From assembly GCF_036917395.1 (NCBI RefSeq), contig NZ_JBALDI010000011.1, positions 15,446 through 79,445 on the forward strand: 64,000 nt of DNA, given 5' to 3'. Source of the DNA: Nostoc sp. GTDB taxonomy: Bacteria > Cyanobacteriota > Cyanobacteriia > Cyanobacteriales > Nostocaceae. Each line of letters starts with the position of its first letter. Within the stretch, counting starts at the first letter, position 1. A model generated the notes under the pieces. That model did no database searches. It saw only the letters and a list, made by a program, of their open reading frames with translations, and was not told the origin of the DNA. Below, piece after piece: positions 43,580 to 45,121 of the stretch. Position numbers and translations under genes: made by a program.

Positions 43580-44371
43580 TTGAAAACAGACAGTATCTTC
43601 TATCGCATCTTCCAAAGTATCCCCAGCACTTTCTTTGAACTGATTAACCAACCGCCGCAACTAGCTAGTGCTTACCAATTTTCTTCAGTAGAAGTCAAAC
43701 AACTGGCGTTTAGAATCGATGGCGTCTTCCTGCCAAATGCAGCAGAACTACCCATTTATTTTGCCGAAGTCCAATTTCAACCAGACAAAAAACTCTACTC
43801 ACGTTTGTTCACTGAAATATTTAACTATCTCGACAAAACCGAATTAACCAACAATTGGCGTGGTGTGGTCATCTTCCCCAACCACAGCGTTGATACTGGA
43901 GATACCGAAAGATATATAGAATTACTCAACTCACAACGAGTGACTCGCGTCTATCTTGACGAATTAAGCTCAATTGAGGCATCATCAATCGGCATTGAGA
44001 CAGTTAAACTGATCATCGAACCTGAATCAACGGCGACAATAAAAGCTATAGAAATAGTCAACAGTGCCCAACAGCAAATTCCAGATGTTGCTACTATTAA
44101 GGAAATTATACAATTAATAGAGACGATATTAATCTACAAGTTACCGCGATTGAGCCAGGAGGAGATAGGAAAAATGTTTGGATCAAATGAATTAAAGCAA
44201 ACTAGATTTTACCAAGATGTTTTTGCAGAAGGTAAACAAGAAGGTATACAAGAAACTAAGTTACAAACGATACCCCAGTTATTAGGGTTGGGTTTAAGTA
44301 TTGAGCAGATAGCTCAAGCGTTAGGTTTGGACGAACAAGTTGTTAGGCAAGCTGTACAACCGAAATCCTAA
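43580..44371 (+). CDS. Rpn-family recombination-promoting nuclease / DUF2887 protein
   Basis: MKTDSIFYRIF, FRIDGVF, FAEVQFQ (PD-(D/E)XK-like), LIETILIYKLP, and QEG...GLSIEQIAQALGL tail. Confidence 0.9.
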   Translation: MKTDSIFYRIFQSIPSTFFELINQPPQLASAYQFSSVEVKQLAFRIDGVFLPNAAELPIYFAEVQFQPDKKLYSRLFTEIFNYLDKTELTNNWRGVVIFPNHSVDTGDTERYIELLNSQRVTRVYLDELSSIEASSIGIETVKLIIEPESTATIKAIEIVNSAQQQIPDVATIKEIIQLIETILIYKLPRLSQEEIGKMFGSNELKQTRFYQDVFAEGKQEGIQETKLQTIPQLLGLGLSIEQIAQALGLDEQVVRQAVQPKS

Positions 44372-44464
44372 AACAATAAAGTGCGCGAACGCTTAACAGT
44401 GCGTTTAATAGAGACGATATTAATCTATGAGTTGCCGCAATTGAGCCAGGAGGAGATCGGAAAA

Positions 44465-44674
44465 ATGTTTGAATTAAATGACTTGAGGCAAACTAGATTT
44501 TTCCAAGATTTTTTTGAAGAAGGTAAGCAAGAAGTTTTTGAAGAAGCTAAACAAGAAGGTAAGTTAGAAGCGATACCTCAGTTATTAGCGTTTGGGTTGA
44601 GTGTTGAGCAGATAGCTCAAGGCTTAGGCTTGGACGAACAAGTTGTTAGGCAAGCTGCACAACTAAAATCCTAA
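44465..44674 (+). CDS. Stand-alone diverged copy of the Rpn C-terminal domain (69 aa)
   Basis: 44405-44687 is homologous to 44114-44384 including the 3' flank; AGGAGG RBS at 44448 before ATG 44465. Confidence 0.6.
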   Translation: MFELNDLRQTRFFQDFFEEGKQEVFEEAKQEGKLEAIPQLLAFGLSVEQIAQGLGLDEQVVRQAAQLKS

Positions 44675-45121
44675 AACAATAGAGTGCTAGCTCGGGGCGC
44701 AAAATTTTGTGTCCCGATATTTTACTGTATTTTATTCAGTTATTACATTAAAATATGACGGATTAAAATACTCATCACCTTACCCAGATTAGCAGTTAAT
44801 AATAATTTTTATTAATAATCACAGAGTTTAACCGCAATCAATTTGGCATGTCGAGGTTGTTTAAGGTCAGTAGTTAAAAACAAAAGGCAATTTAATTAAT
44901 ATTTTTCTTGATTAAATGTGTTACACATTTAACATCCAGAACCCTTAAAAATAATTTTGATGAGATTTTAGTTATTGTTAATGATTAATTCTTTTTTAAT
45001 GAAAGTGAATTAAATCAAAAAATATCTTAGAATTGAAAAATAAATATTGATAAACAGGTGAGGTTTTACAAGCATTATCACCTACATCATGCATGTTAAA
45101 CAATAGAAAAACACCTAGCTG

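Follow-up and report, generated by a model that had tools for sequence, protein, structure and literature searches.

Why does a gene for a putative nuclease in Nostoc carry, directly behind it, a second and stand-alone copy of its own C-terminal end? The question is raised by a 64-kb stretch of Nostoc sp. DNA (64,000 nucleotides (nt), positions 15,446 to 79,445 of contig NZ_JBALDI010000011.1), hereafter the window, in which a small rpn module lies beside uptake-hydrogenase genes. The module consists of rpnL, a gene of the Rpn/DUF2887 family, of rpnS, an open reading frame (ORF) within its 3' end, and of rpnSs, the stand-alone copy of that end. In E. coli and C. difficile, the full-length rpn product RpnL is a toxic PD-(D/E)XK endonuclease, and RpnS, the C-terminal domain alone made from an internal ribosome-binding site (RBS) and start, binds RpnL and blocks it; a plasmid-encoded Rpn gives protection from T-even phages (Zhong et al. 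2023, PNAS, PMC10400941). The first helix of RpnS contains four-residue repeats, 8-20 residues past the Met, with one hydrophobic and three charged or Gly residues each. The number of repeats varies between strains and sets the RpnL-RpnS specificity, and one extra repeat in RpnCS abolishes neutralisation (PMC10400941). Here we propose, with a probability of roughly 0.7, that the Nostoc locus is a cyanobacterial Rpn toxin-antitoxin-type module with three products and one transcription unit, in which translation of the two small ORFs, toxicity and neutralisation would follow the pattern known from E. coli.

The full-length gene and its internal start

Judged by its profile matches, the ORF at 43580-44371 is an Rpn-family nuclease gene, and the family assignment is unambiguous, in agreement with the Rpn/DUF2887 call of an earlier, sequence-only reading of this DNA. 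The Pfam model PF11103 (DUF2887) matched the first 200 residues of RpnL over model positions 1-200, with 268 bits (E 6e-80, cutoff 24). The NCBIfam model TIGR01784 (Rpn family recombination-promoting nuclease/putative transposase) matched the protein end to end, over model positions 1-272 of 273, with 130.2 bits (E 1e-37, cutoff 52.1). DUF2887 has been described as a PD-(D/E)XK domain of the ExQ type followed by a C-terminal helix-turn-helix (HTH), homologous to the YhgA-like/Rpn proteins (Laganeckas et al., PMC3045609), and an E63-V-Q65 motif is present in RpnL.

For comparison, we used relatives from a scan of one genome per species. The scan found 469 relatives, of which the best 80 of 469 (L001-L080, from Nostoc and close genera) were taken, giving 81 related loci together with the window. 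In 58 of the 81, the window included, hupS sits 0.4-0.9 kb downstream of the rpn module, and these 58 syntenic rpn loci are therefore orthologous. D4, D47 and Q65 were invariant in 78/78 N-domains without indels and E63 was kept in 77/78, with a stop codon in the one other case; the ratio of nonsynonymous to synonymous substitution (dN/dS) of the nuclease N-domain was 0.11. In RpnA, D11, D63, E82 and Q84 are required for activity (PMC5350276). The order of the motifs suggests that D4, D47, E63 and Q65 are their counterparts, a correspondence that stays putative because pairwise similarity is nil and the MAFFT alignment with RpnA and RpnE was unreliable in the N-domain.

At the level of sequence, rpnL has an internal start of the RpnS type. 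The sequence-only reading had pointed to AGGAGG placed 11 nt before the in-frame ATGs at 44174 and 44465, giving products of 65 and 69 residues, and this proved correct. A 4-nt core of the Shine-Dalgarno (SD) sequence and the ATG were found in 82/82 internal tails of the related loci, none of the 82 was broken, and their dN/dS was 0.30. In the 58 orthologous loci the internal tails ranged from 61 to 97 residues, always in four-residue steps of the (K/R)QEG type, with 1 to about 10 repeats that begin 17-20 residues after the Met, at about residue 17-21. This stepwise variation matches the published rule for RpnS, which places the repeats 8-20 residues after the Met (PMC10400941).

The start codon of rpnL was TTG in 75/81 loci and GTG in 5/81, never ATG, and it lacks an SD sequence; RpnL is thus probably poorly translated. 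RNA sequencing (RNA-seq) contigs of several related strains stop within a few bases of the TTG (43573-43587), and one of them ends directly at the Illumina adapter, at 43587. These contigs, all from relatives, suggest that the 5' leader of the rpnL mRNA is very short or absent, which together with the TTG would mean weak translation. Furthermore, 7/81 loci (L006, L026, L032, L042, L047, L048, L061) carried a premature stop in the nuclease domain of RpnL with the frame, SD and ATG of RpnS intact. Such a pattern of toxin lost and antitoxin kept is typical of toxin-antitoxin loci and is an indirect hint, read from the alleles, that this may be one.

The stand-alone copy and its lineage

The sequence-only reading had also reported a second, stand-alone copy of the rpnL tail. 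Alignment confirmed it: 44405 to about 44690 (copy B) aligns with 44114 to about 44387 (copy A) at about 88% nt identity; 32 of the 258 coding nt are substituted, and copy B carries one 12-nt (four-residue) insertion, which falls within the repeat zone. The tblastn E value between the two, 5e-35, places the duplication far beyond chance.

Copy B can also be read as a 97-residue ORF from a GTG at 44381. This longer ORF was rejected, as the 60-nt leader before the ATG carries stops or frameshifts in orthologous cassettes. In L017, L037, L039, L040, L044 and L054 the leader has an in-frame TAA or frameshifts and the ORF from the ATG is intact, so that the leader is non-coding and the protein starts at ATG 44465 (69 residues), not at GTG 44381 (97 residues). 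Some database records use the longer, 97-residue type of form. For annotation, the 97-residue 'Rpn family' ORF becomes the 69-residue rpnSs, and the 65-residue rpnS is to be added inside rpnL. Annotated cassette homologues of 65-77 residues are found in many Nostoc genomes. The SD core was present in 32/32 cassettes joined to the preceding tail as in the window, as AGGAGG in 23 of them, and SD cores and ATG are retained despite the non-coding context.

The window cassette belongs to a lineage, here called B-type (MFELNDLRQTRFF...VFEEAKQE...), that occurs in about 25 loci of different Nostoc species and is always the last in its array. Across species, B cassettes share 94% identity among themselves, as compared to 87% with the internal tail at the same locus; the lineage is thus old and orthologous, neither recent nor homogenised by conversion. 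Five positions in helix 1 are diagnostic of it, and the window cassette differs from its own RpnS by nine substitutions in the first 20 residues. Outside the repeats, intact B cassettes showed a dN/dS of 0.28 (codon bootstrap 95% confidence interval (CI) 0.15-0.51). The three codon positions of the ORF had minor-allele counts of 20:22:82, a strong third-position bias. Neutral decay of the second copy, which the sequence-only reading had named as fatal to its proposal, was looked for and was not seen in the lineage of the window. Within the limits of such comparative data, the window cassette is under purifying selection and behaves as a real gene.

Cassette number and turnover among relatives

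Among the 58 loci, 0, 1, 2 and 3 extra stand-alone cassettes were present in 24, 25, 8 and 1, respectively. Two kinds of junction were observed. Units with a short junction start directly with the SD, and their ATG lies 24 nt past the preceding last codon, in a different frame; units with a long junction, the type of the window, start 60 nt ahead of their ATG. The dN/dS of short-junction cassettes was 0.25 (CI 0.14-0.42). Stand-alone cassettes were broken by a stop, a frameshift or loss of the ATG in 13/53 assessable cases, as against none of the internal tails (Fisher 2e-6). The cassettes are subject to birth and death, with purifying selection while alive.

A cassette had the length of its own internal tail in 1/34 pairs, where 4.55 were expected by permutation (P 0.018, shared ancestry uncorrected), and short-junction cassettes were shorter than the internal tail in 16/16 (likewise uncorrected). 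At seven diagnostic residues all 58 internal tails were A-type and the B cassettes nearly uniformly B-type; mosaic tails occurred only in L035 and L046. With 0/58 internal tails carrying the B-type signature, there has been no wholesale tail replacement in the sample, and the tail swapping by recombination suggested earlier found no support. The suggested bank of alternative cassettes fared in part: the window has one extra cassette only, and arrays of up to three are confined to other strains.

Arrays of two or three cassettes were seen in L028 (4595-5528), L013, L014, L022, L025, L034, L038, L039 and L056. L028 has tails of 73, 65 and 61 residues and a frameshifted B-type cassette, the lengths descending along the short-junction part. 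In L069 (2504-4344; Komarekiella delphini-convector) two complete DUF2887 genes follow one another, and their tails (81 and 89 residues) differ by two KLEG repeats; this is a whole-gene tandem duplication and not a tail-only cassette.

Orphan DUF2887 tails, which the sequence-only reading had suggested looking for in Nostocales, turned out to be plentiful. A word-indexed homologue search with the cassette gave 114 matches of 44-115 residues from cyanobacterial genera (Nostoc, Oscillatoria, Microcystis, Phormidium and others), and an exhaustive search of 50%-identity representatives gave 325 proteins at E <= 1e-3. Of the 150 matches listed for the latter, most were short and many of the short proteins begin at the same Met. 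Stand-alone tails of this type are thus numerous and diverse. Among the matches listed there was no close full-length match to the cassette (word-indexed: all <=115 residues; representatives: mostly short), nor was there a full-length protein with a B-type tail among the 81 loci. Non-syntenic DUF2887 paralogues (L062, L066-L080) have tails that are about 80% similar, with a (KLEG)n repeat motif.

Transcription of the module

The hairpin following cassette B had a minimum free energy of -21.5 kcal/mol (z -4.7), as against -7.1 (z -0.4) after tail A. In 84% of 51 loci the last cassette is followed by a hairpin, and none was found between cassettes; in the examples shown, the stem sequence of the terminator differs between loci and the hairpin is kept. 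RNA-seq contigs of related strains run from rpnL through the cassette (X27, 43530-44676; X31, 43580-44547) and reach into the terminator. A sequencing run of this exact strain was searched for and none was found, the best share of words being 0.24. The contigs of the relatives and the placement of the hairpin suggest that rpnL through the cassette is one transcription unit with a single terminator at 44692-44726. A promoter-like sequence lies before cassette B (Table 1). The consensus scan returned 9 sites where 6.8 were expected, so that the match by itself carries no significance; most B cassettes share the sequence of the junction, TTAACA included.

Proposed mode of action and its alternatives

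In the arrangement that we propose, RpnL (263 residues) would be a PD-(D/E)XK nuclease that ends in a helical/HTH-like tail. RpnS (65 residues), made from the AGGAGG-ATG inside rpnL, would pair through its long first helix with the identical tail of RpnL and restrain the nuclease, as in E. coli RpnA, RpnB, RpnC and RpnP2, from which this step is taken by analogy. RpnSs (69 residues), arising from tandem duplication of the last 86 codons, would be co-transcribed and made from its own AGGAGG-ATG as a counterpart of E. coli ypaA (rpnESs). The weak start of RpnL and the strong-SD ATGs of the tails would fit a need for more antitoxin than toxin. We hold to the view that RpnSs is a functional small protein, as its substitution pattern indicates, and not a decaying copy. 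On account of its extra repeat and the changes in helix 1, RpnSs should not be a simple spare of the cognate antitoxin; tentatively, an RpnS-like partner with shifted specificity appears more likely than a spare antitoxin.

Several observations weigh against this proposal. That RpnL is toxic, that RpnS neutralises it, that both small ORFs are translated and that the module acts against phages are expectations by analogy, and the link to the E. coli proteins runs through profile models and published profile-profile work, BLASTP of RpnL against E. coli RpnA giving an E value of 3.5 and no pairwise similarity. PF14261 (DUF4351) did not match the 65-, 69- or 97-residue products at E <= 1, and PADLOC had no match for RpnL, the 69-residue cassette product or the upstream TPR ORF. 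The genomic context is one of hyp/hup hydrogenase genes and not a defence island; proximity to defence genes is a statistical tendency of the Rpn family and not a strict requirement. RpnS folds as a compact three-helix bundle that dimerises via its long first helix (PDB 7TH0). The AlphaFold (AF2) model of the 69-residue product was of moderate quality (predicted local distance difference test (pLDDT) 71), with a long helix at 25-42 and two short helices; Foldseek with this moderate model gave HTH domains at E >= 0.29 as its best matches in PDB and no match to RpnAS 7TH0. Sequence searches of PDB with the full protein and with a profile of 53 tails gave no Rpn chain and only weak HTH matches. 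The RNA evidence consists of assembled contigs of related strains that may contain DNA, and it is supportive only. Since 13/53 cassettes are broken, retention is far from universal. Finally, a mismatch of one repeat abolishes neutralisation in RpnC, so that RpnSs may not act on this RpnL.

The second copy could instead be a functionless by-product of unequal crossing-over or slippage, either young or kept alike by conversion and heading for decay. We consider this unlikely, even though it would sit well with the broken cassettes of the relatives next to 0/82 broken internal tails, with the 24/58 syntenic loci that have no extra cassette, and with the marking of ypaA as a pseudogene in the K-12 RefSeq record. 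A by-product of this kind is hard to reconcile with a B lineage common to about 25 loci whose members resemble each other (94%) more than their own tails (87%), with a dN/dS whose upper CI is 0.51 and a third-position bias that persist while the adjacent leader gains stops, or with the SD and ATG kept in a non-coding context. Selection on RpnSs as a protein is the reading that we prefer. Programmed tail switching, with the cassettes as silent or semi-silent donors that reset the repeat number and helix 1 of RpnL/RpnS, is in turn very unlikely. One to three cassettes in direct orientation in units of 0.2-0.3 kb, the mismatch in length between cassettes and internal tails (1/34 pairs, 4.55 expected, P 0.018), the shorter short-junction cassettes (16/16), the mosaics L035 and L046 and the published loss of rpnSs by fusion with the N-domain (Zhong et al., PMC10400941) are what such switching might leave behind. 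However, the length statistics are uncorrected for shared ancestry, the B cassettes are almost uniform at the seven diagnostic sites with 0/58 internal tails of B signature, no recombinase or recombination signal was identified, and an own SD and ATG with constraint at the protein level would be needless in silent donors.

Two further alternatives concern the target of RpnSs. It might neutralise a paralogous RpnL encoded elsewhere, in the manner of the cross-immunity that the sequence-only reading had raised, or mop up RpnL variants in repeat number. Nostoc genomes hold several DUF2887 paralogues with tails of about 80% similarity, repeat number sets specificity in E. coli, and the cassette differs from the local tail both in length and in helix 1; but the 81 loci include no full-length protein with a B-type tail and the tails of the paralogues are of the (KLEG)n kind, which leaves cross-immunity highly improbable. 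We give hardly any credence to the small proteins being HTH DNA-binding regulators, either autorepressors of rpn or competitors for the DNA sites of the RpnL tail, in place of protein-binding antitoxins. The tails do match Sigma70_r4_2 and HTH_23 weakly, the Foldseek and PDB profile matches are all HTH DNA-binding domains, and a resolvase-like DNA-binding HTH was predicted by Laganeckas et al. (PMC3045609). Every HTH match was below the curated cutoff, however, and E. coli RpnAS forms a direct complex with RpnAL and inhibits cleavage in vitro, its specificity coming from the helix-1 repeats and not from the HTH-like part (PMC10400941). An RpnS-like, protein-binding RpnSs thus stays the preferred reading. 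It is distinctly unlikely that the array as a whole is a maintained, strain-variable specificity bank of one to three separately translated RpnS-like genes, each kept at a helix length unlike that of the nuclease's own tail, and more than a relic of duplication. If true, its cassettes would be recombination donors by which the RpnL/RpnS repeat number is reset, or else a decoy/antitoxin panel for RpnL length variants and paralogues.

Genomic neighbourhood

In the 58 Nostoc-group loci the rpn module is flanked by the hyp operon on one side and hupSL on the other. In the window, the extended hyp operon (33615-43046, minus strand) is divergent from the hup side (45122-50911), with the module between the two (Table 1); the location just upstream of hupSL had been read correctly, with hupS and hupL following in that order. 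In N. punctiforme ATCC 29133 the TPR gene (Npun_R0367) and hupS are immediate neighbours (PMC2661322), and the module is thus an insertion into the upstream region of hupSL in a part of the genus. No other copy of DUF2887 was found elsewhere in the 64-kb window. The exact NtcA consensus GTAN8TAC was absent between 43046 and 45122, the upstream region of hupS, and Rfam gave no match on 42900-45300.

Table 1. Positions of the rpn module, its parts and the neighbouring genes in the window.
Feature	Position	Strand	Basis or remark
hypE	33615-34718	-	extended hyp operon
hypD	34772-35956	-	extended hyp operon
hypF	36436-38784	-	extended hyp operon
NHL-repeat protein	38812-40026	-	extended hyp operon
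NifU-Rieske	40562-41425	-	extended hyp operon
TPR-like ORF	42027-43046	-	extended hyp operon
rpnL, 263-residue DUF2887/Rpn-family protein	43580-44371	+	ORF, PF11103, TIGR01784; TTG start without SD
N-terminal PD-(D/E)XK nuclease domain	43580-44113	+	DUF2887 model match, ExQ motif
Putative catalytic D4	43589-43591	+	motif
Putative catalytic D47	43718-43720	+	motif
Putative catalytic E63-x-Q65	43766-43774	+	motif
Duplication copy A: last 86 rpnL codons, stop, about 16 nt flank	44114-44387	+	alignment
Internal SD AGGAGG	44157-44162	+	11 nt before ATG 44174
rpnS, 65-residue in-frame internal ORF, predicted antitoxin	44174-44371	+	rpnL frame; sequence, arrangement as E. coli RpnS
Tail A repeat zone FAEG KQEG IQET KLQT, RpnS residues 17-32	44222-44269	+	alignment
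Promoter-like TTAACA-17-GATATT before cassette B	44393-44421	+	consensus scan; weak, speculative
Duplication copy B: non-coding 60-nt leader, rpnSs, about 16 nt flank	44405-44690	+	alignment; comparative stops/frameshifts
Cassette SD AGGAGG	44448-44453	+	11 nt before ATG 44465
rpnSs, stand-alone 69-residue tail gene, B-type lineage, one four-residue repeat longer than RpnS	44465-44674	+	sequence, orthology
Tail B repeat zone FEEG KQEV FEEA KQEG KLEA, residues 17-36	44513-44572	+	alignment
Intrinsic terminator, 11-bp G+C-rich hairpin and T-run	44692-44726	+	scan; after last cassette only
hupS	45122-46084	+	downstream of rpn module
hupL	46155-47750	+	after hupS
HycI/HupW-type protease	50339-50911	+	hup side

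A separate insertion of about 132 bp lies at 43364-43495, some 85 nt ahead of the TTG of rpnL. It is missing from contigs of related strains, which pass directly from 43363 to 43496, and it had no match in L001-L080. Its terminal inverted repeats are imperfect (TATAGGAATCATATTTGATT ... AATCAAATCATAGTCCTATA); inside it are heptamers (GGGGAGT/AGGGAAT) like those of short tandemly repeated repetitive (STRR) sequences, and it folds to -28.6 kcal/mol. The insertion looks MITE-like (MITE, miniature inverted-repeat transposable element). RNA-contig depth over it was very high and came from other transcripts with the same heptamers. More runs of STRR-like heptamers were seen at 18015-18048, at 46084-46111 in the hupS-hupL spacer and at 61580-61613.

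Comparison with known systems

RpnL/RpnS was the founding case of a toxin gene that contains its own antitoxin, and Zhong et al. themselves raise the question of what rpnSs does and what drives the changes in the four-residue repeats. The Nostoc locus provides a natural series at one site, namely 58 genomes with 0-3 cassettes and with alleles in which the toxin is dead and the antitoxin intact, and it extends the idea of a gene-within-gene antitoxin to the DUF2887 branch in multicellular cyanobacteria.

As in RpnA, RpnB, RpnC, RpnP2 and C. difficile Rpn, a predicted PD-(D/E)XK nuclease domain is joined to a small C-terminal one. Further features shared with the RpnL/RpnS systems are an SD and ATG in frame within the gene, about 60-70 codons ahead of the stop, hypervariable four-residue repeats 8-20 residues past the Met and a patchy presence at a fixed locus without terminal repeats. 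Nostoc RpnL differs from them in its TTG start and in its uptake-hydrogenase context. Proteins of the DUF4351 family (PF14261) likewise come from small separate genes for the C-terminal domain of Rpn only; for the Nostoc tails, unlike these, the only coverage is by the C-terminal end of TIGR01784, at 49.8 bits and just under the cutoff of 52.1. The silent pilS cassettes beside Neisseria pilE resemble the Nostoc array in being partial copies of a variable 3' part in tandem beside the expressed gene, but the Nostoc cassettes have their own RBS and start and are under selection at the protein level, and no transfer into the expressed gene was seen.

The closest parallel is found in E. coli, where rpnSs genes lie downstream of rpnE (ypaA, or rpnESs, detected by the sequential peptide affinity (SPA) tag) and of rpnC (rpnCSs); each rpnSs derives from its own upstream gene and can disappear, either through deletion or when it becomes fused with the N-domain (PMC10400941). 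The same stand-alone rpnS copies are noted in the commentary by Koonin (PMC10400984). At the K-12 locus, which we checked, ypaA is a repeat of the final 56 rpnE codons, SD included; nt identity is 84%, and the stand-alone copy has exactly one 12-nt (KLEG) insertion. Both in rpnE-ypaA and rpnC-rpnCSs and in Nostoc, the 3' end of rpn is duplicated in tandem with its SD and ATG, and the stand-alone copy clusters with the family of its own upstream gene and has similar repeat motifs (QEG/KLEG). As in rpnE-ypaA, the copies are about 84-88% identical and the stand-alone one is longer by one 12-nt (four-residue) repeat of helix 1. In contrast to E. coli, the N-domain of the Nostoc protein is DUF2887 and not Transposase_31, and the unit in the window starts 60 nt before the ATG, whereas E. 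coli units and Nostoc short-junction units start at the SD. Up to three cassettes occur at a Nostoc locus, and the window cassette is of an old lineage with its own helix-1 substitutions. Since K-12 rpnE-ypaA shares the geometry of the window, a stand-alone copy of an Rpn protein's own tail is an architecture already described; the Nostoc locus is a new cyanobacterial example of the known Rpn system and not a new mechanism.

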